Shown one piece after another: positions 8,103-23,791 of a DNA stretch of 32,000 nt; the stretch's first letter is position 1; every line of letters starts with the position of its first letter. Made by a program: the position numbers and the translations under genes. The stretch lies in contig NC_007969.1 of assembly GCF_000013905.1 (NCBI RefSeq), positions 2,220,001 to 2,252,000 of the forward strand. The letters run 5' to 3'. The DNA is from Psychrobacter cryohalolentis K5 (GTDB lineage: Bacteria; Pseudomonadota; Gammaproteobacteria; Pseudomonadales; Moraxellaceae). The notes under the pieces were generated by a model. It was not told the DNA's origin. It ran no database searches and worked only from the letters and a program-made list of their open reading frames with translations.

Positions 8103-8834
8103 CTAAGCATCAAGCCAATGCTGTTGTCTGGCATAAAAAAGCTGTTTGGGCGTATCGATATCATAGCTAAGTTGATGGTTTATGACCGTACTTAACTGAT
8201 TGGGCGGTAAGGCTCTAATCAAATAGCGCAGACCTTTATCCCCTCTCAGTGCTGGTTGCCATTGTTTGAGACGCTCAACATTAATAACTATCGGAAGACC
8301 GATGATATTATTCTTACCTGTATCAGTAGAATACGCTTTATCTAGATATTGATAACTACTAGCGACCACTGTACTTTTGAACGCTAATAATTCTTTCAAA
8401 TGCTCACTATCTAACAATACTTGATCGACCCCCATGATTAACACCCGATTAATCAATGAGATCTTCAAGTTAGTTAGAGCTTCAATACCAAGAGACAAGC
8501 TATGCGCCATACCCGTTTCAGGTATTAAATTAATCACGGTATAGATTATTGGATTTTGACGGACCAACCCATTAATCGCATCAGTGATTGCTGGTTGATC
8601 TTGAGGAAGGACAACAATAATGGCAAGAGGCTTTGTGGCTAATGCTATTTTAGTCATATAACAGATGAGAGGTTCGCCATGCTTGCTAAGCAGTTGCTTA
8701 GGTTGACCAAGACGCTCGCTCAGACCGCTTGCTAAAATAATAACAGTGTGGTTTTGTTTATTATTTTCTGTACTGCTGGGCAATGGCGTTTTCGTTGGTA
8801 AAATAGAATTATTAGTATCAACATCGCTAGTCAT
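8103..8834 (-). CDS. MobA-like NTP transferase domain protein, probable molybdenum cofactor cytidylyltransferase (MocA-like)
   Basis: VIILASGLSERLGQPKQLL is the MobA/MocA nucleotide-binding N-terminal motif (AGxSxRMGxxKxLL). The gene lies directly downstream of xdhC. The start is uncertain (ATG 8834 or 8846); either choice overlaps the xdhC stop at 8827-8829. Confidence 0.72.
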   Translation of the reverse strand: MTSDVDTNNSILPTKTPLPSSTENNKQNHTVIILASGLSERLGQPKQLLSKHGEPLICYMTKIALATKPLAIIVVLPQDQPAITDAINGLVRQNPIIYTVINLIPETGMAHSLSLGIEALTNLKISLINRVLIMGVDQVLLDSEHLKELLAFKSTVVASSYQYLDKAYSTDTGKNNIIGLPIVINVERLKQWQPALRGDKGLRYLIRALPPNQLSTVINHQLSYDIDTPKQLFYARQQHWLDA

Positions 8835-10176
8835 GGGCGTAATCATTTTTATAGGTATTGAAGCCTGATTGCTTTGAGGTTTGAATAGTATATTGACTAT
8901 TTGGCAGTAAGGTTTGTGGCGCGTGCCCATGAATCACGGCGCTCATTTGTGCCATGATACTGAGTGCCAATGCTTCAGGTCCATCCCCACCCAACTTATA
9001 ACCGATAGGATAATGCAGTTTACAAATACCATCAGCTAAAATATGTGGGTTAGCACTTGTCTCACTAATTTCTTTGATCAAACGCTCAGTACGATAGCGA
9101 GGTCCCAGTTGTCCAAGATAACGATATTGAGCAGAATGCTCTAGTAGTACGGCTAGTCGGGCGCGGTCTTGGGCCAGACTATGAGACATCACAGCAACGG
9201 CGGCGCCAGCACTGAGATTGAGCAATGTTTCACTATCATCCAAAGCCACGCACAGTACTGAGTCTGCTTGGCTAAAGCGCAGACGTGTCGCATATTGTGG
9301 ACGACTGTCTATGACGGTGACATGCCAATCTTGTAGCTTTGCCATTGTCACCAGCGGTAGAACATCGTTACCTGCCCCGCAAATCAGTAATCGGTTTTGT
9401 GGGTAAATCCGCTGCAATAACCACTCACTCTCATGCTTCCGATCACATGTAGCTTGTAGCTCTAGATCGCTCGTTAACTTAATGTATTCAGCATTTTTTT
9501 TATGAAACTTATGGTTTGATAGTTTTTGAATGGTATTTAACAACATATCATCTATAAACGTATTCGAATCGCTTATCGTGTTGCGGTTCAAATATAAATC
9601 AGCCAGATTTCCCGTTTTTAAATACTGATTTAAATAAATACGGGTACCAACTTGCAGGTCAATCCCTTTATATTCGCTACTACCCGATCTAATAAGAGTG
9701 GCAATTGTTACTGGCTGTTGAGTATGGCGAACCTGACGGATGAGATCAAGTAACGATATCGCTGTCGATAAACGCTCAAATAAGACATGTATTCGTCCAT
9801 TACAACCCAAGCCAAAATTGAGCTCACCCTCTAAAAAATCGTCTTCAGACCTATCTTCATCTTTGACAGTAGTGCCTTCTTCTACAACAGTTGAATCAGG
9901 ATCGCCATTGTTATGATATCCAATATCATCCCCTGTTTGGTATATCTGGACGCTCGCGCTATAACGGGTCAGCCAAAACGCGCGTTTGATAATATGCGGC
10001 TCAAGGCAGCCGCCGCTAATCATCCCAACCGAACGTCCATCAGCGCAGATAAGCATCATCGCACCCGGTTGCCGATACGCCGAGCCTTCTGTACGAACTA
10101 CGGTAGCTAATACGGCATCGATGTTTTGTTGTATCGCTTGCTCAGCAAGGTCAAGGATATCAGCAGTTTGATTCAT
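8827..10176 (-). CDS. XdhC/CoxI family molybdoenzyme maturation factor
   Basis: The N-terminal LATVVRTEGSAYRQPGAMMLI...GMISGGCLE matches the XdhC_CoxI domain. The C-terminal RLLICGAGNDVLPLVTMAKLQDWHVTVIDSRP matches the XdhC Rossmann domain. A long acidic/low-complexity insert separates them. Confidence 0.85.
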   Translation of the reverse strand: MNQTADILDLAEQAIQQNIDAVLATVVRTEGSAYRQPGAMMLICADGRSVGMISGGCLEPHIIKRAFWLTRYSASVQIYQTGDDIGYHNNGDPDSTVVEEGTTVKDEDRSEDDFLEGELNFGLGCNGRIHVLFERLSTAISLLDLIRQVRHTQQPVTIATLIRSGSSEYKGIDLQVGTRIYLNQYLKTGNLADLYLNRNTISDSNTFIDDMLLNTIQKLSNHKFHKKNAEYIKLTSDLELQATCDRKHESEWLLQRIYPQNRLLICGAGNDVLPLVTMAKLQDWHVTVIDSRPQYATRLRFSQADSVLCVALDDSETLLNLSAGAAVAVMSHSLAQDRARLAVLLEHSAQYRYLGQLGPRYRTERLIKEISETSANPHILADGICKLHYPIGYKLGGDGPEALALSIMAQMSAVIHGHAPQTLLPNSQYTIQTSKQSGFNTYKNDYAHD

Positions 10177-10218
10177 AACGTTCCTTATAGACTTATCAAT
10201 AAGCTTAGAGAATAAGCT

Positions 10219-10249
10219 AAAAAAACCCGCTGTTTAATCGGGTTTTTTT
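10219..10249. terminator. Symmetric hairpin flanked by an A-tract and a T-tract (bidirectional intrinsic-terminator-like)
   Basis: The sequence is aaaaaaacccg-ctgtttaat-cgggttttttt. On the minus strand it lies 25 nt after the stop of the Moco subunit gene and upstream of xdhC. The GC core is only 4 bp, so it may be leaky. Confidence 0.55.
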
Positions 10250-10273
10250 AAGCAAAACAGTATTTGATAAGAA

Positions 10274-12727
10274 TCAATCTGGCAGTTGGTCAATAAGCTT
10301 ATCTAGAGTAATGGGGAAATCTCGAACCCGGATACCGACCGCATTATAGATAGCATTTGCAATCGCTGCTGCAGCGCCTGAAATCGCCGTTTCACCAATG
10401 CCTTTGATATGCATTGGATTGGTATAACGGTCGTCTTCTTCTAGCAAAATAACATCCAATTGTGGTACATCAGCATTCACAGGAATATGGTATTCAGAGA
10501 GGTCATGATTACACAAGCGCCCGTCATGCTTATCATGGATAACTTCTTCCATTAACGCCGAACCTATGCCAAAAACCATACCACCATAGCACTGTGAAGT
10601 AGCAGTTTTGTGATTGAGGATACGCCCTGCGGCGAACACACCTGTCATACGCTTGACTCGAATCTCACCAGTTACTCGGTGCACAGCGACTTCCGCAAAA
10701 TTGGCACCGAATGAAGATTGGCGATGGGTTTTTTCATTTTTACCCGGTTTAATCTTGCCTTTAGCACTTAACTTTTGGTCGTCATATTGCGCGATAATAT
10801 CGGCTAGTGAATAACTATTATGGCCACTAAAATCATACCTGCTTTGTTTAGCCTCCTGCTTCTCCGGCAAGCGTTCCAATACAGATTCAGGGAGAGGCAC
10901 GCTCGTTTTTTCTGCTAACTTCTCTACAAGTTCAGTGGTGACATCCTTACCAGATTCAATGATAGTCTCTGTTGCTGTAACTTCATGCTCTCCTATTTCA
11001 CTGATCTGACCGTCATTTAGCTGGATGGTGTCGGAATATAGTCCGACTTTGTCTGCCAGCATTTCACGCAATTGCTGACACGCCAGATAAATACTGCTAC
11101 CTGAGCTTGCCGCACCCATGCTACCGCCTGAACCAACGGCTGGCGGCATACTGGTATCGCCAAGTTTCATCTCAATATGGTCAACCGGTAGACCAAGTAG
11201 GTCAGCAGCAATTTGGGTAAATACGGTATAGGAGCCCGTACCAATATCGGTCATATCCGTTTCAATAATGGCTTTGATCCCAAGATTTTTTGAGTCATCG
11301 ATTTGTAGGGTTGCTCTTGCTTCAGAAAGCTTTAACTGATTACCACGGGCAGCGGCAGCCATACCGATACCCAACCACCAGTCTCCTTCTAAGCGCTTGG
11401 CGGGTATTTTATTGCGTTTCTCCCAACCAAACTGCTCAGCCCCTTTTTCCATACAGGCGATCAGCTGTCGAGTTGAAAAAGGTATTTCTTTACTAGGATC
11501 CTGATGAGGCTCATTACGGCGGCGTAGCTCTATAGGATCCATATCTAATTGAATGGCCAACTCGTCCATTGCACATTCAACAGCAATTAACCCCACTGCT
11601 TCCCCAGGAGCGCGCATTGAACCTGATAATACTTTATTGACATCAACCATCTGATATTCGACCTGACGATTTTCACCGCGGTATAGATAGTGAGTAGACA
11701 GCGCTGCAGGCTCAAAGAAGCTCTCGCCGGGTAAATTGCTAGTGATGGTATTATGGATAAAAGTATTAATAATACCGTTCTTATTACAGCCGATGCCAAT
11801 CCGTTGACGCGTATCTGAGCGCCTTATAGTGGTTTCCATGACTTGCGGGCGAGTCATCACAATCAATACCGGACGCTTAAGCTCTTTTGCAGAAATGGCT
11901 GCGGCAATCGATTCGGGTGCAATGCCAAGTTTACTGCCAAAACCGCCACCAACGTAATGAGCAATCAGTTGTACATTATCTGGATCCAAATTTAAGGCAT
12001 CCGCCACTTGTTGTTTGCAAGATGACAACATCTGATTGGCCGTATACAATACTAACTTTTCATCCTCCCAATAAGCCAATGTAGCATGTGGCTCCATGGG
12101 CGAACTACTCTGGCTTGGCGTATGATAAATCTGATCAAACGAAACCTCAGACTCTTTAAGTGCTTGCTCTGGGTAGCCCTGCTTATAATTCTTGTCCGAA
12201 CCTTTGTTTTCATCAACCGAATGCGCATTTCCCAATGCTGAGCTGAAATCTATCACAGCATTTGCTGTTTCATCTTCATAAGTCACCTTGAGGGCTTTTG
12301 CGCCTTCAGTAGCCGCTTCAAAGGTTTCAGCGATTACGGCAGCTATGGGCTGACCATGGTAAAAAATTTCAGCGACGCCTTGAGTGGGTGCTTTTTTCTC
12401 TCCGCCTTGCTGAGCATTACGCAAAAAATGCTCGGGATCAGTAACCACTTTAATAATACCTGGAATCGCCTCTACTGCATGGCTATCGATGTGCTTCACC
12501 TTGCCTTTAGCAATGGTCGCACCCACTAAGACGCCATACACCTGCCCTTCAACATAAAATTCTGCGCTATAAGTCGCTTGTCCACTGACTTTCAAGGAAC
12601 CGTCTACACGGTTGATAGGTTTACCAACCAATTGACTGGCAGTTTTATCAAAAAGAGTATCAACTGGGTTATCCATGGTCAGTTTTTTTGTGGGTTCTGA
12701 TGGCAGTACTGCGTCCAATAGTGACAT
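10274..12727 (-). CDS. Xanthine dehydrogenase family molybdopterin-binding large subunit (PaoC/YagR-like aldehyde oxidoreductase)
   Basis: 817 aa. Typical Ald_Xan_dh blocks are present: GQATYSAEF, HYVGGGFGSK, SGSMRAPGE, and GIGETAISGAAAAIANAIYNAVGIRVRDFPIT at the C-terminus. Confidence 0.92.
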   Translation of the reverse strand: MSLLDAVLPSEPTKKLTMDNPVDTLFDKTASQLVGKPINRVDGSLKVSGQATYSAEFYVEGQVYGVLVGATIAKGKVKHIDSHAVEAIPGIIKVVTDPEHFLRNAQQGGEKKAPTQGVAEIFYHGQPIAAVIAETFEAATEGAKALKVTYEDETANAVIDFSSALGNAHSVDENKGSDKNYKQGYPEQALKESEVSFDQIYHTPSQSSSPMEPHATLAYWEDEKLVLYTANQMLSSCKQQVADALNLDPDNVQLIAHYVGGGFGSKLGIAPESIAAAISAKELKRPVLIVMTRPQVMETTIRRSDTRQRIGIGCNKNGIINTFIHNTITSNLPGESFFEPAALSTHYLYRGENRQVEYQMVDVNKVLSGSMRAPGEAVGLIAVECAMDELAIQLDMDPIELRRRNEPHQDPSKEIPFSTRQLIACMEKGAEQFGWEKRNKIPAKRLEGDWWLGIGMAAAARGNQLKLSEARATLQIDDSKNLGIKAIIETDMTDIGTGSYTVFTQIAADLLGLPVDHIEMKLGDTSMPPAVGSGGSMGAASSGSSIYLACQQLREMLADKVGLYSDTIQLNDGQISEIGEHEVTATETIIESGKDVTTELVEKLAEKTSVPLPESVLERLPEKQEAKQSRYDFSGHNSYSLADIIAQYDDQKLSAKGKIKPGKNEKTHRQSSFGANFAEVAVHRVTGEIRVKRMTGVFAAGRILNHKTATSQCYGGMVFGIGSALMEEVIHDKHDGRLCNHDLSEYHIPVNADVPQLDVILLEEDDRYTNPMHIKGIGETAISGAAAAIANAIYNAVGIRVRDFPITLDKLIDQLPD

Positions 12728-12729
12728 GA

Positions 12730-13722
12730 TTATGCTCCCTTACCCGTTAGTGCGCGCTCAATAACTTGCTTTAACAAGCGACTCGTCAGCGGTATCTTAA
12801 AATCGTTCTGACCACTACCCTTGGCATCTTTTAATAGCAAATCTGCCGCTTGCGAAATAATGTTGACGTTACCGTCTGTACCTATGAGTAATGCTTCAAC
12901 CGCTTCATTACGCCAAGGCTTAGTGCCAATACCACCAAATGCCAAACGTACCGTTTCTAATTTTCCTTGATTATTGACGTTTATTACGGCCGCACATGAC
13001 ACTAAAGCAAAGGCGTAAGAGGCGCGATCACGAACTTTGTCATAAGTGTGCATGCCTTTCACTGGAGCTGGGAGAACAATATGAGTAATCAGCTCCCCTG
13101 TCTCTAAGACAGTTTCGATATTTGGCGTGTCTTTTGGCAAGCAATAGAAGTCTTTAATCGGAATCTGGCGCGAGGTGCCGTCTGCTTTGAGCGTCTCAAT
13201 AGTGGCATCGAGTAAGCGCATCGCTACCGCCATATCTGATGGGTGCTGAGCAATACAATCATCACTCGTTCCTAAGACAGCAAGCGGACGATTTTCACCT
13301 TTAATAGCGGGACAACCAGAACCAGGATTGCGTTTATTACAAGGACTATCGGGCTGATAAAAGTAGTAACAACGGGTGCGTTGTAATAGATTGCCGCCTG
13401 TGGTCGCTTTATTACGCAATTGTCCTGAAGCCCCTGCTAGCATCGCCCGAGCTAATACAGGGTAGCCTGCCGTAACCGCTGGGTGCGCAGCCAAATCACT
13501 GTTCGTCACCAGCGTGCCGATGCGTAACCCACCATCAGCAGTAGCCTCTATTTGTTGCAGCTCTAAGCGCGTAATATCAACCAATTTTTGAGGAGTCTCA
13601 ATCTCAATCTTCATTAAATCTAGTAAATTGGTGCCACCGGCAATAAAAGATGCATCCTCAGGCGTGGCAAACATCACGGCTTGTTGCGGTTCGAGGACAC
13701 GAATATATTCAAAGCGTTTCAT
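12730..13722 (-). CDS. Xanthine dehydrogenase family FAD-binding subunit (PaoB/CoxM-like)
   Basis: MKRFEYIRV...FIAGGTNLLDLMK is the FAD_binding_5 N-terminus, and a CO-dehydrogenase flavoprotein C-terminal-like region follows. There is an ATGA overlap with the upstream 2Fe-2S gene (13719-13722). Confidence 0.9.
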   Translation of the reverse strand: MKRFEYIRVLEPQQAVMFATPEDASFIAGGTNLLDLMKIEIETPQKLVDITRLELQQIEATADGGLRIGTLVTNSDLAAHPAVTAGYPVLARAMLAGASGQLRNKATTGGNLLQRTRCYYFYQPDSPCNKRNPGSGCPAIKGENRPLAVLGTSDDCIAQHPSDMAVAMRLLDATIETLKADGTSRQIPIKDFYCLPKDTPNIETVLETGELITHIVLPAPVKGMHTYDKVRDRASYAFALVSCAAVINVNNQGKLETVRLAFGGIGTKPWRNEAVEALLIGTDGNVNIISQAADLLLKDAKGSGQNDFKIPLTSRLLKQVIERALTGKGA

Positions 13723-14402
13723 AAACGTTCTCCCTTAGCACTGGCAGCATTGGGAACATTAGCAGTTTGCTTTACCATTGAATGACCGCCAATTTGTGCC
13801 TCGCTAGGCGGCGGCGACCAAATACCACTAATAGCTACACTGGCTGGGCTATTATTAGGCGCATCGTCGGTCACTGAAGAAGAGTTTGATACTTGTTGAT
13901 TTTCGAGCACCTGTGAGATGGCTTTGATAATATTAGGATAGGCTGAACAGCGACAGATATTACCACTCATGCGCTCAGAAATTTCTTGTACTAGCAGTCC
14001 ATTAGGATTTTGCAGATCAGTAGTCACATGACTTGGCCACTGTTGTTTGATTTCCTCTATCAATGCCGTTGCAGAACAAATTTGTCCCGGCGTGCAATAG
14101 CCACATTGAAAGGCATCATGGTCTTTAAAGGCCTGTTGCAATTCTGATAGCGATTCAGGTAGTCCGATACCTTCAATGGTGGTAATCTCATCACCATCGT
14201 GCATGACCGCTAATGTCAAACAAGAATTGATTCGTCGACCATTAATAATCATAGTACAAGCGCCGCATTGCCCATGATCGCAGCCTTTTTTTGGTCCTGT
14301 GATATGTAGATGGTGACGACATACATCCAGCAATGTCGTTCGCGGGTCAAGATTATCAAACTCATAATCCTGCTGATTAATTGTTAACATTAAATTAGAC
14401 AT
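13719..14402 (-). CDS. (2Fe-2S)-binding small subunit of the molybdoenzyme (PaoA/CoxS-like)
   Basis: GCDHGQCGACTMIINGRRINSC and CGYCTPGQI...GNICRCSAYPNI are the two canonical [2Fe-2S] cysteine clusters. There is no twin-arginine leader. About 60 aa of S/N/P/A-rich C-terminal tail is present. Confidence 0.92.
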   Translation of the reverse strand: MSNLMLTINQQDYEFDNLDPRTTLLDVCRHHLHITGPKKGCDHGQCGACTMIINGRRINSCLTLAVMHDGDEITTIEGIGLPESLSELQQAFKDHDAFQCGYCTPGQICSATALIEEIKQQWPSHVTTDLQNPNGLLVQEISERMSGNICRCSAYPNIIKAISQVLENQQVSNSSSVTDDAPNNSPASVAISGIWSPPPSEAQIGGHSMVKQTANVPNAASAKGERL

Positions 14403-14730: not shown

Positions 14731-14964
14731 TTAGCTCTATCAGTACCAGTCAAAATACAAGAACGTCGTATCTCTAAAGAAGATTGGAGCAGTTAGTAAC
14801 AGTCGTAACCTTTCGTCAAGTTTCATAAAGCTACGCAACGTCATAATCCTTTATCATTTCCTTTGTCGACAGAGTAAGGCTTCATCAAGACATTTTGTTT
14901 GATGGTAAGTCTTGCTTCTCAATCAATAATTCATGTTTGAATACGAATTTGGAAGGAAATGATA

Positions 14965-15207
14965 ATGAAAAATACAATGATAAGCGCTATTGTAGCTGCT
15001 ACCGTTTGTTTTGCTATGATTGGTCAAGCAAGTGCTGCACCCGCGCCGCATGTTGCAAAACATCATGTTACCCATACAAAGCAACATAAAGCTCCTCAGA
15101 AAGTAATGGTTAAAAAAGTTGCACATAAGAAGGTTGCACATAGGAGAGTTGTGGCTCAACACCATAAACCTGCACCTAAAGTCGTATATGTTCAAAACCG
15201 TCGTTAA
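14965..15207 (+). CDS. Small secreted, highly basic His/Lys-rich protein (80-aa precursor)
   Basis: MKNTMISAIVAATVCFAMIGQASA|APAPHV... is a typical Sec signal with an AxA cleavage site. GGAAGGA lies 7 nt before ATG 14965. The ORF is followed by a strong terminator. The 56-aa mature part has 9 His, 10 Lys and 4 Arg, and no Asp or Glu. Confidence 0.6.
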   Translation: MKNTMISAIVAATVCFAMIGQASAAPAPHVAKHHVTHTKQHKAPQKVMVKKVAHKKVAHRRVVAQHHKPAPKVVYVQNRR

Positions 15208-15243: not shown

Positions 15244-15269
15244 AGCTCCTAGTTAGGAGCTGTTTTTTA
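15244..15269. terminator. Rho-independent terminator, bidirectional
   Basis: The sequence is agctcct-agtt-aggagct, followed by gtttttt on the plus strand and preceded by aaaaat. It can therefore serve both the small secreted-protein gene (+) and the end of the BCCT operon (-). Confidence 0.8.
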
Positions 15270-15333: not shown

Positions 15334-16059
15334 CTATATACCTCCTGCCCCTTTACTTGATGCCTCACTGTTTTCAACCAATATCGCTGCAGCGCTTTTT
15401 TTCAGAGTTGCCCACTGCCCATCATCAACATAAATACCTTCTTTCCATGCCCGCTGATGGGTTGCATACAGCTCATCTGTTGATACTTTACGATCAAAGT
15501 ACTGAATATCCTGTTCAATATCAAAGTTGGTTGTTGATAACTCAATGACCATGTCATTGGTATTGTAATTAGCCTGCGCTTCATTAAAAAAATACAGATC
15601 AGGATAGACAAATCTTCTATCTAAAGTAAATATCGTATGCTTGGGTGCGCTACCATTGTCCCACTTCGCCAAACAAGCAATGCCTTTTGCCGCCAGTTTT
15701 GCAAGCTCACTATAAGCCAGCCAGCGGTTATGACAATTCTGTAAATATACTTTAAAATGATTTCGACTGCCCATCTTTTCGATCACATAATCCATCACTG
15801 CCGGTAGATGACAGACCAGACTGCTCCCATGCAAATCTAATCTGACTTCACCCTCGCCTTGATAGATGATATCAATCGCAACATCACGTTCAGACAAAAT
15901 AAAAGGACTGGCATTATTAAAATGCAAAATACCGTTTAGACCTGCCATTTGCAGCTCAGCTACCATGGAAGCAATAAGGTCAGCTTCGCCTACTTCACGT
16001 TGCATACCCAGAAAAGCTTTATTCACCATGGTCACTATTTCGTTATGCGATACGATCAT
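15334..16059 (-). CDS. Uncharacterised protein, 241 aa (resembles DUF3726-type proteins from memory; unverified)
   Basis: The ATG at 16059 overlaps the stop of the upstream 576-aa gene by 17 nt. The N-terminal S.NEI....KA..G.....G.A......V..L...GL.G pattern and the C-terminal ...LVENSEASSKGAGG tail recall a conserved hypothetical family. I recognise no catalytic motif. Confidence 0.7.
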   Translation of the reverse strand: MIVSHNEIVTMVNKAFLGMQREVGEADLIASMVAELQMAGLNGILHFNNASPFILSERDVAIDIIYQGEGEVRLDLHGSSLVCHLPAVMDYVIEKMGSRNHFKVYLQNCHNRWLAYSELAKLAAKGIACLAKWDNGSAPKHTIFTLDRRFVYPDLYFFNEAQANYNTNDMVIELSTTNFDIEQDIQYFDRKVSTDELYATHQRAWKEGIYVDDGQWATLKKSAAAILVENSEASSKGAGGI

Positions 16060-17773
16060 GGGTTAACCCTCTTTTCGGTACAGATAAATTTGGTAACAAA
16101 GGAAACAGCCACTCATCGCTGTGTACTTCAGCAAACAAAGGCGCACCTTGGAATAGCGTGACACGCACCCAGCGATCTGATCTTGGATCGAACTTAGTCG
16201 CGCCAAACATAGACAATTTACAGCGTAACAAATGCATTGGTAATGCCGTTTTTTGCAGCACATTAATCTGAATATCGCCCATCTTTTTATGTCCCATTGT
16301 CCAGACGCGCCGAGCAATAGAACGATACTTTGGTTGCTTTAAGATAAATTCTGATAACAGTTGCTGTGGATCCGCTTGTTGTAATGCCAGATATAAAGTG
16401 TTCGCCTGCCTACCAATATCTAACAGGAATTCCTTATCATCGCCACGCTCTTGTCCACGCACACCCATTCTTGGCTCTTCTTTATCTTCTGAGCGATACC
16501 AGAACCAATAGACATTATCTTCTGCCTCAAAATCAATACTTATCGCCCATTGATAACGCGCTTCTAATACGTCAATCAAATCTTGTACGACTTTGCCACC
16601 GGGCAGCGACATGGTTTCATCAGCATTGGCTTGCCCTGCAAACGCATCAACAAGCTCAGGATACAGCTCCATCAGACAAGAGGTAATGACCTCTTGGCTC
16701 TCAAAACTAAGGTACGCCTGACGCTGTAAAAAATCAGCCCACGTAACACATCCTTCAATCTCGCTCGTAAAGTTGTTTTGTAGCTTATTCAGCTCATCAA
16801 CGACGGTACTATTCAGTAGAATTTGCGGCTCATTGATAGTGACCACTTCAGAGAAATGCTGGATAGCGCGCTTCATTAAATGTGAAAGCTGCTGGATTTT
16901 ATTATTACGATCATCTTCAATATCACAGACCAACACCGCTTGTAGCGCGCCTTCACGCGCACTCAGCCATTGATCAACGACACAAGGATGATTAATGAGA
17001 TAAGGCGCCATGCCAAGACCAGTCGCATTACCTATGCCCAGATACTGCTTAATCTCAGGATGCAAGCTGACCGCTTTATCACCGCCCTTTTTCTGAGCCA
17101 AGTAATCGACCCAGTCAAGGCTAAATTCTCGAATGAGATACACCGCACACATCTGGGCACGAAAAGATTGATTAAAATCCTCACTGTGATCTAGCGGTTT
17201 AAAGTCATAAATACCAAATTTGCCATTGCCATAAACTGCCGTGGTACGCAGTATATAACCCACTTGCGCAAGTACGTCCAAATCAGGCTGCTGACCTTCA
17301 GCAAGTGAGCTGACAATATGATCAAAGACCCGAACGCTTTTATTGGCACGTGCCAGCACCATCACCATGTTGGAGTTACGACCCGCTTCTTGTAATGGCA
17401 CATTGGCTTTTAGGTTTGCAAGTAGCTCGTCTCCTATCTCTCCATAAACGAGGGCAAAGGTGACATCCCATTTTTGCGCAATGACACGATCATTACGTTC
17501 TTCATCAGCAATCTGATTGCAAAACACCACCAGATGATAAACGTGCTCAGGGGTTTGTAAACGATAAATGACCTGTCCATAGCCGTCATTATCTAAATCC
17601 CACAGATGCTTGCTTAATGTCCAATGCTCTTTGTCGATTTTGCGCAATAACGTACGGACGAAGCTAATACGCGTTTGGTGCATAGCGCCGAGTCGTTCAG
17701 AATGCATCACCACATCGGGTGTACGGAAGCTGACTGCATCTAGCCTATCGTTGTTTGGCAAAGTATGTTCCAT
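16043..17773 (-). CDS. Uncharacterised protein, 576 aa, no recognisable domain
   Basis: This is a long uninterrupted ORF (track 16043..17806, TTG start). I prefer ATG 17773 (MEHTLPNNDR...), which has GAAGGTGA 7 nt upstream. There are no TM segments, no signal peptide, and no Rieske, Fe-S, Rossmann or P-loop motif that I can see. Confidence 0.8.
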   Translation of the reverse strand: MEHTLPNNDRLDAVSFRTPDVVMHSERLGAMHQTRISFVRTLLRKIDKEHWTLSKHLWDLDNDGYGQVIYRLQTPEHVYHLVVFCNQIADEERNDRVIAQKWDVTFALVYGEIGDELLANLKANVPLQEAGRNSNMVMVLARANKSVRVFDHIVSSLAEGQQPDLDVLAQVGYILRTTAVYGNGKFGIYDFKPLDHSEDFNQSFRAQMCAVYLIREFSLDWVDYLAQKKGGDKAVSLHPEIKQYLGIGNATGLGMAPYLINHPCVVDQWLSAREGALQAVLVCDIEDDRNNKIQQLSHLMKRAIQHFSEVVTINEPQILLNSTVVDELNKLQNNFTSEIEGCVTWADFLQRQAYLSFESQEVITSCLMELYPELVDAFAGQANADETMSLPGGKVVQDLIDVLEARYQWAISIDFEAEDNVYWFWYRSEDKEEPRMGVRGQERGDDKEFLLDIGRQANTLYLALQQADPQQLLSEFILKQPKYRSIARRVWTMGHKKMGDIQINVLQKTALPMHLLRCKLSMFGATKFDPRSDRWVRVTLFQGAPLFAEVHSDEWLFPLLPNLSVPKRGLTHDRIA

Positions 17774-17875
17774 ATAACTATCACCTTCAATAATGTGTTG
17801 AACCAACCACCTTTTAATACTGTAGATTTGCAGTTTTTATGAGCAAATAAACTATCAGCGATAACAAAGCGCTAT

Positions 17876-19561
17876 CTAATCAACTTCTTTACCAATACTT
17901 TTTTCGACAAGCTGCTCTTCGATGAGTTGATGAGCAGTTTCCACGCTATTAGGGCGATAAAGATCTTGATCCCTTGCCATCTGCTGCGCAATTTTTGGTC
18001 CATTCCATAATGATGGCAGCAAAACAAAGGAGACAGGCACCGCCGTAATGACAATAAAGGATTGCAACGCTGTCACGCCGCCTGCACCAAGCGAGATAAG
18101 AACAATCGCCGTCACCCCCATCATCACGCCCCAAAAGGTGCGAATGATAGCATTTGGCTCTCTCTCACCACTGATCACGACACTGATGGTATAGGTCATC
18201 GAATCACCAGTAGTAACAATGAAAACCATGGTTAGAATGATAAACAATAAGGAAGTAATCAAAGGAAATGGCAGCTGCTGAGTGATGGCAAGCAGTGCTC
18301 CAGGAAGATTAAAGCCTTCAAATGCTGTACTCACACTACCAGGATTGGCAATCTCAAACGCAAGACCCGAACCGCCGATGACCGTGAACCAAAAGCAGGT
18401 AACCAATGGCGCCAAAATGCACACGGTCGTAATCAATTCACGAATCGTGCGACCGCGTGAGATACGAGCGATAAATATTGCCATCATCGGGCCATAACCC
18501 AAAAACCAGCCCCAAAAGAAAACCGTCCAACCACCAAGCCAAGCTTCATCACCGCGATAGGTTGCCATCGGGATAAAGTTTTGCACCATGGTGCCAACAC
18601 CTTGAATATACCCATTAACAATAAATTTGGTAGGACCAAACATCAAAATAAAGACCATCAGACCAAAGGCCAATATGACATTAAAGCGACTGAGCAGCTG
18701 CATACCTCGAGCAAGACCACTAATGGCTGAGAGCGTATAAAGTGCAATAGCAAAGATGATAATGATAAGTTGGGTAGTAAAGGTATCAGGAATACCAAAC
18801 AGCGTATTCAACGCATAGCTGGTTTGTAATCCCAAAAATCCAATAGGACCGATCGTACCGGCAGCAACCGCGACAATACAGCAAGCGTCGATAATTGCAC
18901 CCGTATGACCTGTAAGCACGCGCTCACCAAACATAGGGTATAAAAGCGTACGCGGTTTCAGCGGCAAGCCTTTATCATAATGTAGATGCATCACCACAAT
19001 AGCCGTCAAGCTACCGACAATTGACCAAGCTAGAAATCCCCAATGCATAAAGGACTGAGATAGCGCATTGAAAGCGCGTTGTTGGATATCAGCAGATTCG
19101 CCATACAGTGGCGGTGCGCTAACGAAATGAGCGATAGGTTCAGCGGCTGCCCAAAAGACGCCGCCGCCAGCGAGCAGCGTACAGAATAAAATCGCCATCC
19201 ATTTAAAACCGTCCATCTCAGGCTTCGCTAGATTACCTAAAATGACGCGTCCTGTACGACCTGCGCCGACTGCTAGTGCAATCACAAAGGTCGCTAACAA
19301 TAAAATTTGCCAAAAAGGACCAAAGACCGTTGCCGACCAAGAAAATCCGGTATTGATGAGCTTTCCCAAACGCTCTTCGGCAAAGATGGCCATAAGAACA
19401 AAGGCAATGATAAAGCCGCCACTGTACCAAAATGCTGGGTTTTTTAGCCCTAAAGTATCTGATGGAGTCTCTACATGCATTAAATTATCCGCTATCTTAT
19501 CGGTTTTATGAGAGCGTCCTTGCTCATGTTGCTTACTGTTAAATCCTTTTAAATCAGCCAT
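17876..19561 (-). CDS. BCCT family (betaine/carnitine/choline-type) transporter
   Basis: 561 aa with about 12 hydrophobic segments. Conserved BCCT blocks are present: WGFLAWSIVG, FFWGWFLGYGPMMAIFIARISRGRTIRE (the Trp-rich TM8 signature region) and GGSGLAF. Confidence 0.92.
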   Translation of the reverse strand: MADLKGFNSKQHEQGRSHKTDKIADNLMHVETPSDTLGLKNPAFWYSGGFIIAFVLMAIFAEERLGKLINTGFSWSATVFGPFWQILLLATFVIALAVGAGRTGRVILGNLAKPEMDGFKWMAILFCTLLAGGGVFWAAAEPIAHFVSAPPLYGESADIQQRAFNALSQSFMHWGFLAWSIVGSLTAIVVMHLHYDKGLPLKPRTLLYPMFGERVLTGHTGAIIDACCIVAVAAGTIGPIGFLGLQTSYALNTLFGIPDTFTTQLIIIIFAIALYTLSAISGLARGMQLLSRFNVILAFGLMVFILMFGPTKFIVNGYIQGVGTMVQNFIPMATYRGDEAWLGGWTVFFWGWFLGYGPMMAIFIARISRGRTIRELITTVCILAPLVTCFWFTVIGGSGLAFEIANPGSVSTAFEGFNLPGALLAITQQLPFPLITSLLFIILTMVFIVTTGDSMTYTISVVISGEREPNAIIRTFWGVMMGVTAIVLISLGAGGVTALQSFIVITAVPVSFVLLPSLWNGPKIAQQMARDQDLYRPNSVETAHQLIEEQLVEKSIGKEVD

Positions 19562-19634
19562 GATGTAATTCCATATGATAATGTTGCGTCATTTAAATTG
19601 GCGTTTTATCTAAACCGTCTTACCCATCTATATT

Positions 19635-19664
19635 TTAATGCTTGTTACTTTAATGCTTATTACT
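19635..19664. repeat. 15-nt tandem direct repeat x2 (ttaatgcttgttact / ttaatgcttattact)
   Basis: Read directly. There is one mismatch. It lies in the 149-nt spacer between the M19-like gene and the BCCT gene. Confidence 0.9.
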
Positions 19665-19710
19665 TTGAGTTTTAGCCAGCATTTTAGAAAGCTACATCTG
19701 TGCCTAGCAT

Positions 19711-20700
19711 TTATACTAAAGGCTTAATGCCACTCTCAAGAAAATTAAACCAGTTTTGTCCAATGATTTTTCCAGCATCAGCATCATTAAAACCATGTTT
19801 GAGCAGACCGTTATAAATATTCTCCATCCCGTCCTTGCCTGCAAACCATGGCAAAGTATCTGGCCAACCTGAATTGTTGGCATTACCTTCGCCATAATCC
19901 ATTGCCTTTGACCAGCGTCCATTGCGCATCCATTCAAGTACCGCTTGCGGTTGGTTCAGGCACAAGTCACTACCAATGGCTAAATGCTCAACGCCATATT
20001 TATCGGCACAATCAGCAACCATGCTGCAAAAATCATTGAGCGTACAATCACTACCATTCGGCAAATGAAACGGATATAGGCTAAAACCTAACAGCCCGCC
20101 CGCTTTGGTTAAGGCACTAATAACGGCATCAGATTTATTACGCAGCGCATCGTGTGCAGCCGTTGGATTGGCATGACTGATACATATCGGGCGCGTAGAA
20201 TACTCGATCGCTTCAAGCGTTGAACGCTCTGCGCTATGCGACATATCGATAATCATCCCAACTCGATTCATCTCTGCTATCGCCTGCTGACCAAAGCGCG
20301 TAATGCCACTATCATTCTTCTCATAACAACCGGTTGCTAGTAGGCTTTGGTTGTTATACGTCAGCTGCATGATCAGTAGTCCTAAGCGGCGCATCACGCT
20401 GATAAGCCCAATTTCATCATCAATCGGTGAACAATTTTGCGCGCCAAAAAGGATACCGACTTTACCTTGCTGCTTTGCCATCTCAATATCAGTAACTGAA
20501 TACACTGGTAAGATAAGATCTGAGTTTTGCTCAAAGCGTGCATGCCATTCTGCAAAGCGTGTCATTGTCTGCCGCGAATCCTCGTGATAAACCAAGGTGG
20601 CATGTACCGCATTGATACCGCTGGCTTGCAGCATTTTGAAATAGTCACGATCCCAATGGCTATACTGTAAGCCGTCAATGACGATATGGTCTTGATACAT
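19711..20700 (-). CDS. Peptidase M19 (renal/membrane dipeptidase) family homologue with non-canonical metal-ligand positions
   Basis: 329 aa. VIDG....., GKVGILFGAQNCSPID, IIDMSHSAERS, ICISHANP and IGSDL match the M19 TIM-barrel blocks. See the findings for the ligand substitutions. Confidence 0.85.
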   Translation of the reverse strand: MYQDHIVIDGLQYSHWDRDYFKMLQASGINAVHATLVYHEDSRQTMTRFAEWHARFEQNSDLILPVYSVTDIEMAKQQGKVGILFGAQNCSPIDDEIGLISVMRRLGLLIMQLTYNNQSLLATGCYEKNDSGITRFGQQAIAEMNRVGMIIDMSHSAERSTLEAIEYSTRPICISHANPTAAHDALRNKSDAVISALTKAGGLLGFSLYPFHLPNGSDCTLNDFCSMVADCADKYGVEHLAIGSDLCLNQPQAVLEWMRNGRWSKAMDYGEGNANNSGWPDTLPWFAGKDGMENIYNGLLKHGFNDADAGKIIGQNWFNFLESGIKPLV

Positions 20701-20792
20701 GGTTAATTCCTTTTATACTTTTACGAATGCATTGTGGCAGGAGAATCTTTACCAGCCACACATCACTATTAGCACCTGTCATTAACTGACTC

Positions 20793-22268
20793 TTAATAAG
20801 CCTTTTGATAAGCCGTTTTAACAATAGTATAAAACTCTTTAGCGTACTGACCTTGTTCACGCGGGCCAAAGCTAGACTCTTTACGACCACCAAACGGTAC
20901 ATGATAGTCCGTACCAGCAGTGGCTAGATTGACCATGACGCAACCTGCTTGTACTTGCTCTTTGAACATCGCACTATTACGCAAGCTTTGGGTAATGATA
21001 CCGCCGGTTAGACCAAAGCGAGTATCATTAGTCATCGCAATCGCTTCTTCCAAATTTTTGACGCGCATGACACAAGCTAGGGGCGCAAACACCTCTTCTT
21101 GATTGATATCCCAGCTGTTATCAGTCTCAGTAAACAAGGTAGGCGACATATAATAGCCATCATGCGGCATATCTAAACGCTCGCCACCAAAGGCTAAATT
21201 GGCACCGGCTTGCTTGGCCTTTTCAATCCAGTCTAGGTTGGATGCAAGTTGCTTATCATCAACCACAGGACCCATAAAGATACCGTCATCAAGCGCATGA
21301 CCAACTTTTAGGGTTTTCATTTTTGCAATGACACCATCGACGAAAGCATCATGAATGCCATCCATGACGATCAAGCGTGAAGATGCCGTACATTTTTGTC
21401 CTGAACCCCCAAACGCACCAGCAACCGCCGCATCAATCGCGACTTGTAAATCGGCATCATCAGCGATAACCAAGGCATTCTTACTACCCATCTCAAGCTG
21501 GCAACGGACAAAGTTTGGCGCGGTTGCCGCAGCAACTTTACGACCGGTTGGCACAGAACCTGTGAAGCTAACTGCATCAATATCTTTTGAATTAATGAGT
21601 GCATCGCCAACTGATGAGCCGCCACCCAATACCAAGTTGAATGTGCCTTCAGGCAACCCTTGACGATGAATGATTTCAGCTAAGGCGACCGCACTGGCTG
21701 GTGTTAAATTGGCAGGCTTCCAAATGACACTATTGCCAAATGCTAAAGCTGGGGCTATTTTCCACACAGCAGTTGCGGTTGGGAAGTTCCAAGGAGAGAT
21801 AATAGCGACGACACCGACTGCTTCACGAGTGACTTCTACTTTAACCCCTGGACGTACTGAATCCGCAGTATCGCCCATTTGACGCAACACCTCAGCGGCA
21901 TAATAATGGAAGAACTGACCGGCACGATAAATCTCGCCGCGACCTTCCGCAAATGGCTTGCCTTCTTCACGTGACAATAAAGTACCTAATTCATCGCAAC
22001 GGGCAATCATCTCATCGCCAATTGCCTGCAGAATAGATTGCTTCTTCTCTAACGGCGTTGCCTCCCACTTTGGCTGCGCTTGGCGGGCAGCAGCAATAGC
22101 GTCTTTGACTTGATCGCTACTGGCTTGGGCGAACTCGCCGATAGTTTCGCTGATATCAGATGGGTTAATATTAGCAATAGTATCGTTACCCGCTTGCCAC
22201 TCACCATTGATATAAAGGGATTGCTGCGGGTCTTGCTGTAATACTTTTTGTGTGTTTTGAGCTGACAT
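20793..22268 (-). CDS. NAD(P)+-dependent aldehyde dehydrogenase, alpha-ketoglutaric-semialdehyde-dehydrogenase (KGSADH/YcbD)-like
   Basis: 491 aa. SPWNFP, FTGS, the catalytic ELGGK-equivalent LEMGSKNA, GQKCTASSR (catalytic Cys) and the C-terminal TAGTDYHVPFGGRKESSFGPREQG are all present. Confidence 0.92.
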   Translation of the reverse strand: MSAQNTQKVLQQDPQQSLYINGEWQAGNDTIANINPSDISETIGEFAQASSDQVKDAIAAARQAQPKWEATPLEKKQSILQAIGDEMIARCDELGTLLSREEGKPFAEGRGEIYRAGQFFHYYAAEVLRQMGDTADSVRPGVKVEVTREAVGVVAIISPWNFPTATAVWKIAPALAFGNSVIWKPANLTPASAVALAEIIHRQGLPEGTFNLVLGGGSSVGDALINSKDIDAVSFTGSVPTGRKVAAATAPNFVRCQLEMGSKNALVIADDADLQVAIDAAVAGAFGGSGQKCTASSRLIVMDGIHDAFVDGVIAKMKTLKVGHALDDGIFMGPVVDDKQLASNLDWIEKAKQAGANLAFGGERLDMPHDGYYMSPTLFTETDNSWDINQEEVFAPLACVMRVKNLEEAIAMTNDTRFGLTGGIITQSLRNSAMFKEQVQAGCVMVNLATAGTDYHVPFGGRKESSFGPREQGQYAKEFYTIVKTAYQKAY

Positions 22269-22340
22269 AGTGGCGTCCTCAGTTTATTAAAATTCAAATG
22301 ATAAAATGATTTAAAGAGCTGTATAAATATAGTGGAAAAA

Positions 22341-22730
22341 TTATGGTACGTTCGCATAAACGACTAGCTCAACCAACATCTCTTCACGAGCAAGTCCTGC
22401 TATCACTAAAGCCGCGCGATTTGGATAAGGTGCTGTAAAATATTCCGCATAGACTTGATTGACCGTTTTTAGATATTCACGATCAGTAACATAAATGAGT
22501 ACCTGTAAGACTGAGTCCATGCCTACATTGGCACATTCTAAAGTATGCTTTAAATTATCAAGGGTTTGCCGGGTTTGGGCTTCGATACCACCTGCGACCA
22601 CATCACCGTTTTCATCAATAGGAATCTGCGCGGTGTATAACGTGCCATTACTCGTGACTGCCCATTCAAGAGGTGCTTTTGAGGCATAAAGTGAAGTCTG
22701 AACCGCTTGTTTGGTTGAGGGAGTCGTCAT
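22341..22730 (-). CDS. RidA/YjgF/UK114 family protein (reactive enamine/imine deaminase family)
   Basis: APLEWAVTSNGTLYTAQIPID...QTRQTLDNLKHTLE...VLIYVTD...VYAEYF....PNRAALVIAGLARE..VELVVYA is typical of the family. I prefer ATG 22730 (129 aa); the track ORF starts at TTG 22763. Confidence 0.85.
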   Translation of the reverse strand: MTTPSTKQAVQTSLYASKAPLEWAVTSNGTLYTAQIPIDENGDVVAGGIEAQTRQTLDNLKHTLECANVGMDSVLQVLIYVTDREYLKTVNQVYAEYFTAPYPNRAALVIAGLAREEMLVELVVYANVP

Positions 22731-22830
22731 ATCGTCATATCCTTTGAATGAATGGTTTGGCAATTTCTGTGTTATTGATTATCCTACGCAATAAATAGTG
22801 ACAAATCTAACTAATTAAATATTAAATATG

Positions 22831-22845
22831 ATAGATTTAATCTAT
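22831..22845. promoter_or_regulatory. LysR-type T-N11-A palindrome (atagatt-t-aatctat) in the divergent promoter region
   Basis: The arms are a perfect 7+7 bp inverted repeat containing T-N11-A (22832-22844). A tataat hexamer follows at 22849-22854. The site is 56 nt upstream of the LysR start and 101 nt upstream of the RidA ATG (22730). Confidence 0.4.
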
Positions 22846-22900
22846 CGCTATAATAAATAGTATCTGATCAACGGCAGCAAGCACAAAGGCACTAACGATT

Positions 22901-23791
22901 ATGAAACTACAACAGTTACGACATTTTTTGTTTGTGGTAGAAGAAGGGGGTTTTCGTGTGGCAGCCAACCGCGCCAATAGAACACAGGCCGCATTATCCG
23001 CCTCTATAAAAGAGCTGGAAAAAACACTGGATCAGCGTTTATTCGAAAGTGGCAATAAAGCAACACTGACACCGTTTGGAGAAAGTTGCTTGCCAAAGAT
23101 TCAGCAGTTCATCAGTGTTTATCAAGCATTTGAGGAGGACTTAAGAGCGACCGCAGCAGGCGATAAAGGGAAGATAAGAATTGCTAGCGTACCATCACTG
23201 GTGACTAAGTTACTGCCTAGCGTATTGGTCGCCTATTCAAAGAAATACCCTGATATTGAAATTGTTTTGATAGATGATAACGCGGTTGGCGTTGCAAACC
23301 GGCTGCTCACGGGCGAAGTAGATTTGGCATTAGGTAATTGTACGAGTATCAATCAAACAGATATTGATTTTACCCCACTTATATCAGATCCTATCGGTGT
23401 GGTTTGTCTTAAAAGTAATGCGCTGAATCATGAATCGCGTCACTCTCAAGGGCTAAAATGGCAACAACTCATGGCAGAGCCTTTTATTTATAATGGCACC
23501 TGTCGATTACTCGAGAACACACCCGCAGAAGTGCTCAATCGCAAAGCTCGCTACACAGTAGAAAATATCACCTCACTGTTCTCATTGTTAAGAAACGATC
23601 TTGGTATCACCACTCTACCGAAACTTGCCTTTCCTTCTAATGAGCCCGAGTTGGTTTGGATAAACTTACTTGACCCTTCTTTAAACAGACAAATCGGTAT
23701 CTTTAAACTGGCTGACAAATCCATTTCCCCGCCCGCTCAAGCTTTTTATGAGCTCTGTGTGACCTATGTGCAAGAGCACTATCTATTATGA
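22901..23791 (+). CDS. LysR family transcriptional regulator
   Basis: MKLQQLRHFLFVVEEGGFRVAANRANRTQAALSASIKELEKTL is a canonical LysR HTH, followed by a LysR substrate-binding domain. It is divergent from the RidA...BCCT operon. Confidence 0.92.
   Translation: MKLQQLRHFLFVVEEGGFRVAANRANRTQAALSASIKELEKTLDQRLFESGNKATLTPFGESCLPKIQQFISVYQAFEEDLRATAAGDKGKIRIASVPSLVTKLLPSVLVAYSKKYPDIEIVLIDDNAVGVANRLLTGEVDLALGNCTSINQTDIDFTPLISDPIGVVCLKSNALNHESRHSQGLKWQQLMAEPFIYNGTCRLLENTPAEVLNRKARYTVENITSLFSLLRNDLGITTLPKLAFPSNEPELVWINLLDPSLNRQIGIFKLADKSISPPAQAFYELCVTYVQEHYLL

Follow-up and report, generated by a model that had tools for sequence, protein, structure and literature searches.

A gene cluster in the window analyzed here, a 32,000-nucleotide (nt) stretch of Psychrobacter cryohalolentis K5 (contig NC_007969.1, positions 2,220,001 to 2,252,000), is identified, with a probability of roughly 85%, as the orthologue of the homarine (N-methylpicolinate) operon, with homR divergent and followed by homE-homD-homC-homT-homB-homA. 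Homarine is among the most abundant small nitrogen metabolites of marine phytoplankton and invertebrates. The assignment was made because gene sizes, gene order, predicted functions, and taxonomic distribution agree with the homABCDER/homT homarine operon reported from Cobetia sp. OBi1 and Ruegeria pomeroyi DSS-3 (Ferrer-Gonzalez et al., Nat Microbiol 2026; PMC13236597). According to that study, the operon serves SAR11, roseobacters, vibrios, and numerous further bacteria in converting homarine to glutamate. The hom system is already described at the genetic level, and the operon itself is no discovery. An earlier note on this window, prepared from the letters alone, had proposed a substrate-inducible operon for an imported osmolyte-like compound, and a homarine-induced cluster of the same composition is indeed what has been published (PMC13236597). 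As to its class, the substrate would be an N-methylpyridinium betaine and not a classical aliphatic one.

The six co-directional genes, their spacings, and the divergent LysR gene that the note had described were all recovered at the same coordinates on recomputing the open reading frames (ORFs), and its RidA, aldehyde dehydrogenase (ALDH), M19-like, BCCT, and LysR assignments were upheld by Pfam and NCBIfam. All six genes lie on the minus strand. The first is the RidA-family gene homE (22341..22730), which encodes 129 amino acids (aa) from its ATG, or 140 aa from an alternative TTG start at 22763; it is followed by the ALDH gene homD (20793..22268; Pfam Aldedh), the M19-like gene homC (19711..20700; Pfam Peptidase_M19), and the BCCT carrier gene homT (17876..19561; Pfam BCCT). 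The last two are a 576-aa ORF, homB (16043..17773; 1,731 nt, with 576 aa in the NCBI annotation as well), and a 241-aa ORF, homA (15334..16059; 726 nt; Pfam DUF3726). Intergenic gaps of 72, 92, 149, and 102 nt separate homE, homD, homC, homT, and homB in that order, and homB then overlaps homA by 17 nt, an arrangement through which homA is translationally coupled to homB. The regulator gene homR (Pfam HTH_1 and LysR_substrate) is divergent, on the plus strand at 22901..23791. The NCBI names of the K5 proteins include hypothetical protein, DUF3726 protein, membrane dipeptidase, aldehyde dehydrogenase, and BCCT transporter.

The published operon can be compared with this layout gene by gene. Homarine induces seven consecutive genes in Cobetia sp. 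OBi1, one for a regulator, one for a glycine-betaine-type transporter, and five whose catabolic functions are unclear, and R. pomeroyi carries five of the hom genes (SPO3188-3192) (PMC13236597). HomA and HomB form a predicted heterodimer with a proposed role in ring opening, HomC is predicted to be a peptidase, HomE occurs variably, and HomT is the transporter (PMC13236597). Mutants in homB, homC, homD, or homR do not grow on homarine, the ALDH gene homD (SPO3191) being essential for this growth and the regulator homR being needed for it as well, and the operon's transporter gene speeds growth on homarine in Cobetia (PMC13236597). The published lengths of ~700 nt for homA and ~1,700 nt for homB (PMC13236597) compare with 726 and 1,731 nt in the window. 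In the 11,755 genomes of the paper, homA and homB are adjacent in 97.7%, and homE stands beside either homA or homD (PMC13236597). In the window, the 726- and 1,731-nt genes are adjacent with their 17-nt overlap, the M19-like and Aldedh genes stand 1.9-6.2 kb upstream of homAB and are transcribed in its direction, inside the 10-kb limit used for homC and homD, the divergent LysR gene adjoins the operon, and the optional homE is represented by the RidA gene directly beside the ALDH gene. The protein families of homR and homE are not named in the paper's text (PMC13236597). The paper's hidden Markov models (HMMs) gave far stronger matches for homB (to 1e-240) than for homA, and those for homC and homD were unspecific (PMC13236597), a pattern that fits what would be expected from a long conserved 576-aa family, a short divergent DUF3726 family, and the M19 and ALDH families.

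A neighborhood search around the 576-aa family, which the earlier note had suggested, covered 86 loci (80 from one scan of species-representative genomes, five further contigs, and this window), with ORFs called and neighbors clustered. Only the cluster's seven families proved widely shared: the 576-aa family was present at 82 loci, the M19-like and DUF3726 families at 67 each, ALDH at 64, LysR at 54, BCCT at 51, and RidA at 43, and no other neighboring family exceeded 9 of the 86. These loci span Gamma- and Alphaproteobacteria, Campylobacterota, Bacillota, and Chloroflexota, and the gene set cannot plausibly be put down to chance. The window's own gene order recurs unchanged in Psychrobacter, Psychromonas, Aliivibrio, Vibrio, Photobacterium, Shewanella, and Enterovibrio, and a permuted order is found in Halomonas, Marinobacter, Amphritea, Poseidonibacter, Salinicoccus, Lentibacillus, and Brevibacillus. 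The LysR gene is divergent and adjoins the operon at 54 of the 86 loci, and nearly all loci have the 576-aa and DUF3726 genes either side by side or joined in a fusion. The variably present RidA gene (43/86) adjoins either the ALDH or the DUF3726 gene, so both homE placements (beside homD or beside homA) occur among the collected loci. In Halomonas and Marinobacter the order is LysR, ALDH, M19, BCCT, 576-aa, DUF3726, RidA; read in reverse (RidA, DUF3726, 576-aa, BCCT, M19, ALDH, LysR), it fits the Cobetia hom locus tags 11490-11520, in which homE comes first, the transporter fourth, and homD sixth. Cobetia has homE beside homA, whereas Psychrobacter has it beside homD. On a Phaeobacter inhibens plasmid, the order LysR, ALDH, dipeptidase, BCCT, hypothetical protein, DUF3726 protein has sarcosine-oxidase-like genes and a gene for an Ldh-family oxidoreductase on its flanks. 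Vibrionales, Porticoccaceae, Oceanospirillaceae, and Rhodobacterales are common to the paper and to the collected loci.

Several observations weigh against identification with the hom operon. Orthology was judged from architecture and not from alignment to the tested proteins of Cobetia (ACFLL8_11490-11520) or R. pomeroyi (SPO3188-3192), and Psychrobacter HomB has an identity of just 43-47% to its Halomonadaceae and Marinobacter counterparts and of 39% to that of Phaeobacter. The 32-kb window holds no N-methylglutamate dehydrogenase, and no gene of the operon is an obvious oxygenase or reductase, leaving the steps of ring opening and imine reduction without a catalyst that has a recognizable cofactor site. 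Additionally, HomA has been reported to carry flavin adenine dinucleotide (FAD)-binding motifs, and HomAB has been likened to the flavin system TgnAB (PMC13236597); such motifs were not found in the 241-aa protein, in which only DUF3726 and an Ldh_2-type fold were detected. The published flavin-type functional guess for HomAB may accordingly need revision.

The absence of a sequence-level link to the tested hom genes would also suit a second explanation, which we consider unlikely, in which the same HomB/HomA/HomC core acts on another imported compound (trigonelline, another N-alkylpyridinium, or a cyclic imino-acid betaine) and Psychrobacter is no homarine degrader. The HomB/HomA/M19 trio does occur in other contexts, for example on Sinorhizobium meliloti pSymB, beside MTHFR, MetH, and methyltransferases at one locus (L005), and beside DgcA-like and GMC oxidoreductases at another (L003), and the family probably covers more than one substrate. 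However, these divergent contexts belong to much more distant homologues, whereas the window has the full seven-gene architecture in an order identical to that of Vibrio, Photobacterium, and Aliivibrio loci, to whose HomB proteins the Psychrobacter HomB is 57-64% identical. A Vibrio isolate with the hom operon grows on homarine (PMC13236597), and the gene lengths and the placement of homE in the window agree with the published operon, all of which argues for homarine as the substrate.

Much less probable is a part in glycine betaine or dimethylglycine catabolism, which would be suggested by the close relationship of the M19-like gene to PA5396, the first gene of the Pseudomonas aeruginosa dgc (dimethylglycine demethylase) operon. 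Among solved structures, HomC is best matched by the P. aeruginosa protein 2i5g (5e-59), which we take to be PA5396; a dipeptidase-like gene precedes dgcAB in both P. aeruginosa and Vibrio natriegens, and one distant HomB locus lies near a DgcA-like gene. Nevertheless, dgcA, dgcB, etf, gbcAB, and sox genes are missing from the window and from the conserved surroundings of HomB, and the second gene of the dgc operon encodes a 177-aa DUF5943 protein and not DUF3726, leaving only the M19-like paralogue in common. A shared M19 plus DUF3726 module, with PA5397 as its DUF3726 member, had been entertained and was discarded on finding that the protein of V. natriegens and P. aeruginosa is this 177-aa DUF5943. 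The earlier statement that the cluster lacks any Rieske, DgcAB/Sox, BetAB, M24, or Ddd/Dmd-type enzyme was borne out, with no such domain found anywhere in the 32-kb window.

That the genes form a chance string of unrelated units, each with its own promoter, is scarcely credible. The gaps of 72-149 nt are roomy enough for promoters, and promoter-like sites are present, but a consensus scan returned 30 of them against 24 ± 4 in shuffled sequence, about the background level; against independent units stand the identical order at 24 Psychrobacter, Vibrionaceae, Shewanella, and Psychromonas loci, the recurrence of the set across phyla, the overlap of the last two genes here and their fusion elsewhere, and the position of the only convincing terminator, which follows the last gene, homA. 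Other substrates, namely hydroxyproline betaine via alpha-ketoglutaric semialdehyde (KGSA), ectoine, carnitine or gamma-butyrobetaine with trimethylamine elimination, 4-amino-3-hydroxybutyrate or isoserine dehydration, and S-methylmethionine, had been considered on chemical grounds alone; nothing in the gene content speaks for any of them, and the hom match took their place.

A T-N11-A palindrome had been noted in the promoter region shared by homR and homE, and the palindrome GATAGATTTAATCTATC, which contains this LysR-box motif, can be read directly at 22830..22846. Its core TAGATTAAATCTA, with one change allowed, was found in the LysR/RidA intergenic region of all ten Psychrobacter loci examined, a conservation that exceeds chance. 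At the other end, the earlier claim that the string stops at a bidirectional terminator (15244..15269) was matched by the hairpin AGCTCCTAACTAGGAGCT at 15244-15261, which has a 7-bp stem (AGCTCCT/AGGAGCT) and the flanks AAAAAT and GTTTTTT. The A-run and T-run on either side of the hairpin make it plausible that this intrinsic terminator, which closes the operon, works in both directions.

Among the encoded proteins, HomB and HomA are the proposed ring-opening pair. HomB (576 aa) gave no match in Pfam, NCBIfam, PHROGs, or PDB sequences with a single-sequence search, and a profile of 115 sequences found no match among PDB sequences. Its AlphaFold model is confident (predicted local distance difference test, pLDDT, 89.8; predicted template modeling score, pTM, 0.90), and no Foldseek match to the PDB was obtained for it below E = 0.1. 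A kinase-like fold was considered and rejected, as the protein kinases and APH(4) among the Foldseek matches had E = 0.5-6 and template modeling (TM) scores of about 0.1, and were treated as noise. The family counts about 7,900 homologues, all named hypothetical, with 1,262 representatives at 50% identity; Arg, Glu, Trp, and Tyr account for many of its invariant positions, His for a single one, and Cys for none, and no Rossmann or flavin signature was seen in HomB. Many homologues of 760-960 aa consist of the 576-aa module fused to a C-terminal DUF3726 module, indicating that the two overlapping genes of the window encode partners. The HomB profile also produced matches to Ldh_2 and HomA, which were set aside because they came solely from the C-terminal columns of the fused proteins and not from the HomB core. 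HomB is proposed as the catalytic subunit of the ring-opening step.

HomA (241 aa) can be placed more closely. Its N-terminus matches Pfam DUF3726 (1e-15), no match to Pfam Ldh_2 (PF02615) was found, and its AlphaFold model (pLDDT 89.8) retrieved 27 Ldh_2-family chains with Foldseek at E <= 0.001, with a probability of 1.00 and TM scores of 0.5-0.7. The best match was the delta1-piperideine-2-carboxylate reductase DpkA (1wtj; E 5e-9), and AllD, YiaK, and ComC were also among the matches. The predicted structure thus has its fold in common with the Ldh_2 family, of which DpkA is a delta1-piperideine-2-carboxylate/N-methyl-amino-acid dehydrogenase; members of that family are about 340 aa long with an S-H-G motif, whereas HomA is about 100 residues shorter. 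When HomA was compared by hhalign with genuine Ldh_2 neighbors, the alignment reached 92.7% probability over the first 130 residues with the S-H-G segment deleted, and a C-terminal helix motif aligned weakly with YiaK. On these models, HomA looks like a truncated, degenerate Ldh_2 fold resembling a dead dehydrogenase.

The description of these two proteins as unrecognizable is therefore correct for the 576-aa protein, which matches nothing in Pfam, NCBIfam, or the PDB, and not for the 241-aa protein, which is a DUF3726 protein of Ldh_2 fold. The earlier note had also assigned the committed steps of the pathway to the M19 homologue and these two proteins, in line with the published proposal of HomA and HomB as ring openers and the prediction of HomC as a peptidase (PMC13236597). 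It had added that placement of the two in a characterized enzyme family that already explains the pathway would overturn its reading; this has come about in part, the two having since been named HomB and HomA on evidence that is genetic and not enzymological.

HomC belongs to Pfam Peptidase_M19 (PF01244; 1e-69, 235 bits against a cutoff of 26), and its best solved relative, 2i5g, is annotated as an 'amidohydrolase'. It has the (beta/alpha)8 amidohydrolase domain in common with renal dipeptidase/dehydropeptidase-I (MEROPS M19; 1itq, 3id7), whose binuclear zinc site has five ligands; at the positions that we take from 1itq and 3id7 to be the M19 metal ligands, three of the five are replaced in HomC. 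The canonical H-x-D reads L-Q-Y (Leu11 in 65/67 and Tyr13 in 62/67 orthologues), and the bridging Glu is Gln88 in 67/67. Of the five ligands, only His155 and His176 are kept, so the canonical set is not retained; these two residues and Asp245 are invariant among the 67 orthologues. As the replacements are conserved and the two His and the Asp are invariant, the metal site appears to have been rebuilt rather than to have decayed. The PA5396-type protein (2i5g) falls in the same M19 subfamily, with I-D-G-L for D-G-H-x-D and F/A-Q-N for A-E-G, and in the dgc operon of P. aeruginosa and V. natriegens it is likewise part of an N-methylamine catabolic operon. Its partners there are DUF5943 and DgcAB/EtfAB, without HomB or HomA. 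Classical dehydropeptidase-I cleaves N-acyl dehydroamino acids, the chemical type proposed below for the C7H9NO5 intermediate, and HomC is proposed to be the deformylase of an N-formyl enamide.

HomD, HomE, and HomT fall below the NCBIfam cutoffs of their nearest models. HomD is an NAD(P)-dependent aldehyde dehydrogenase that matches Pfam Aldedh at 2e-157, and its closest NCBIfam models are those of 2,5-dioxovalerate and KGSA dehydrogenases; with 482-485 bits against cutoffs of 750-770, this is the closest family and HomD is not a member. Its catalytic Glu is present in 67/68 orthologues and its catalytic Cys in 68/68. HomE matches Pfam Ribonuc_L-PSP (4e-23, 82 bits) and scores below the NCBIfam RidA and RutC cutoffs (75.7 against 106.25 for TIGR00004), so it is a Rid-family member rather than an archetypal RidA; its P-N-R-A motif, with the carboxylate-binding Arg, is invariant in 43/43 orthologues. 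HomT matches Pfam BCCT at 7e-151 and lies under all NCBIfam equivalog cutoffs for betaine, choline, and carnitine carriers (339 vs. 650, 280 vs. 695, and 221 vs. 541). The BCCT signature of PROSITE ends in W-x-W-W; in the TM8 (eighth transmembrane segment) motif of HomT, W-T-V-F-F-W-G-W-F-L-G-Y, its final Trp is replaced by Phe in 51/51 orthologues. HomT is probably the homarine importer.

A scheme for the pathway can be assembled from these assignments and the published metabolites. The detected intermediates are C7H9NO5, C6H9NO4, and C6H9NO3, and the product is N-methylglutamate (PMC13236597). The earlier note had expected a route through an enamine or imine and an aldehyde; we infer that the three intermediates fit enamide/enamine and semialdehyde species by formula, and the ALDH HomD is needed for growth. 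HomR would bind the T-N11-A palindrome and turn the operon on with homarine, of which the induction and the need for homR are published and the binding to this site is our suggestion. HomT would import homarine, for which partial genetic evidence has been published for Cobetia. HomB and HomA would then open the N-methylpyridinium ring at C5-C6; the role of HomAB is the paper's hypothesis, and the bond, stoichiometry, and product are deduced from the published formulas, with homarine (C7H7NO2) + 2[H] + O2 yielding N-formyl-N-methyl-2-amino-5-oxopent-2-enoate (C7H9NO4). HomD would oxidize this semialdehyde to the dicarboxylate C7H9NO5, a published formula to which the structure is assigned here, and HomC could take off the N-formyl group as formate in a dehydropeptidase-like reaction, giving N-methyl-dehydroglutamate/N-methyl-2-iminoglutarate (C6H9NO4). 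Reduction of this enamine/imine would give N-methylglutamate, the published product, which N-methylglutamate dehydrogenase would demethylate to glutamate. Alternatively, HomE may hydrolyze the imine to 2-oxoglutarate and methylamine in a RidA shunt.

The published formulas together with N-methylglutamate fit this sequence of a formyl-enamide, an enamine, and a reduced amino acid, and the kinship of HomD to 2,5-dioxovalerate dehydrogenases and the HomE Arg for 2-imino-acid carboxylates count in its favor. The additional neighbors found at some loci are as the scheme predicts. SoxBDAG/mgd-like genes near the operon (5-6 loci) would demethylate N-methylglutamate, and full-length, genuine Ldh_2 genes standing as separate neighbors (8 loci and the Phaeobacter plasmid) are candidate imine reductases. 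Formate-dehydrogenase-like molybdoenzymes would fit the release of formate by HomC; a 961-aa formate-dehydrogenase-like molybdopterin oxidoreductase adjoins the operon at five loci (L031, L032, L035, L038, and L040). A 747-aa Poseidonibacter ORF after the fused homBA (L001 and L030) has two molybdopterin domains only.

The closest chemical precedent is the trigonelline (N-methylnicotinate) pathway TgnA-F of Acinetobacter baylyi ADP1, in which TgnAB is a two-component flavin reductase/oxygenase. Its substrate is an isomeric N-methylpyridinium carboxylate, the N-methyl group is kept, and the ring-opened N-methylformamido compound is also C7H9NO5, after which the aldehyde is oxidized and one-carbon and amine units are released hydrolytically. 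The two pathways differ in their ends, succinate semialdehyde for Tgn and N-methylglutamate for hom, and in their ring openers, as the flavin reductase and monooxygenase domains of the TgnAB type are in neither HomA nor HomB. Pfam, NCBIfam, PDB sequence and profile, and fold searches returned no flavin reductase, monooxygenase, Rieske, or Rossmann signature for either protein. It may tentatively be suggested that HomB, the degenerate Ldh_2-like HomA, and the metal-site-altered HomC make up a modular N-alkylpyridinium ring-opening system unrelated to the flavin two-component, Rieske, and molybdenum hydroxylase systems, that this trio is reused for other substrates (S. meliloti pSymB, L003, L005, and the fused 800-950-aa forms), and that HomE provides a methylamine-releasing shunt to 2-oxoglutarate in bacteria without N-methylglutamate dehydrogenase. 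Ring opening in such a system could possibly proceed by hydride reduction of the pyridinium and oxygenolytic cleavage of the resulting enamine.

Further genes accompany the trio or the operon at particular loci. On S. meliloti pSymB (L087, 6223-15686), a distant HomB-like/HomA-like/dipeptidase trio, with a HomB identity of 28%, is found with an IclR regulator, an ABC transporter, and an aminotransferase, without an ALDH, and on 64 Sinorhizobium plasmid records; this trio probably serves another substrate. A SABATH-type S-adenosylmethionine-dependent methyltransferase (Pfam Methyltransf_7) lies near the HomB/HomA/M19 trio at four loci (L005, at 1013-2119, L044, L049, and L068), at the first of these together with MTHFR and MetH. 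SABATH is a plant methyltransferase family that includes trigonelline synthase, and the enzyme at these loci could synthesize or alter an N-methylpyridinium compound. A TauE/SafE-family membrane protein (245 aa) is encoded directly after the DUF3726 gene at L055, L060, L064, L070, L073, L078, L082, and L084, and elsewhere in the locus at L065; these are loci of Amphritea, Marinobacterium, Pseudomonas, and relatives, and the protein may export an anion.

Within the window, the hom terminator is followed directly by a complete set of molybdenum hydroxylase genes (8103-14402, minus strand), encoding a MobA-like NTP transferase, XdhC, an 817-aa molybdopterin subunit, and FAD and 2Fe-2S subunits. 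Molybdenum hydroxylases of this type hydroxylate N-heterocycles such as picolinate and nicotinate. A picolinate-type hydroxylase working with the operon was considered and dropped, as the set is not conserved near HomB beyond a few Psychrobacter loci. Between this set and the hom operon lies an 82-aa ORF (14959-15207, plus strand), downstream of which is the shared terminator; its start resembles a signal peptide, its tail is repetitive and rich in His, Lys, and Val (…HVAKHHVTHTKQHKAPQKVMVKKVAHKKVAHRRVVAQHHKP…), and it has no Pfam match. The trehalose-6-phosphate synthase (GT20) and trehalose phosphatase genes at 5020-7499 (minus strand) are an osmolyte synthesis pair unrelated to the operon.

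For the hom system as a whole, the structural observations on HomA, HomB, and HomC, together with the modular trio, add modestly to what is known, and they correct or sharpen the published functional guesses. The enzymology is the discovery that remains, with a ring-opening HomA/HomB pair that has no recognizable cofactor domain, a HomA resembling a dead dehydrogenase, and a HomC resembling a dipeptidase whose metal site has been rebuilt. For P. cryohalolentis, identification with the hom operon gives a function to five K5 genes that were 'hypothetical' or misnamed. The text of the hom paper names no Moraxellaceae psychrophile, and the Psychrobacter host is one. Members of the genus are found in permafrost and food. 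The assignment would extend the hom pathway to the cold-adapted genus Psychrobacter.

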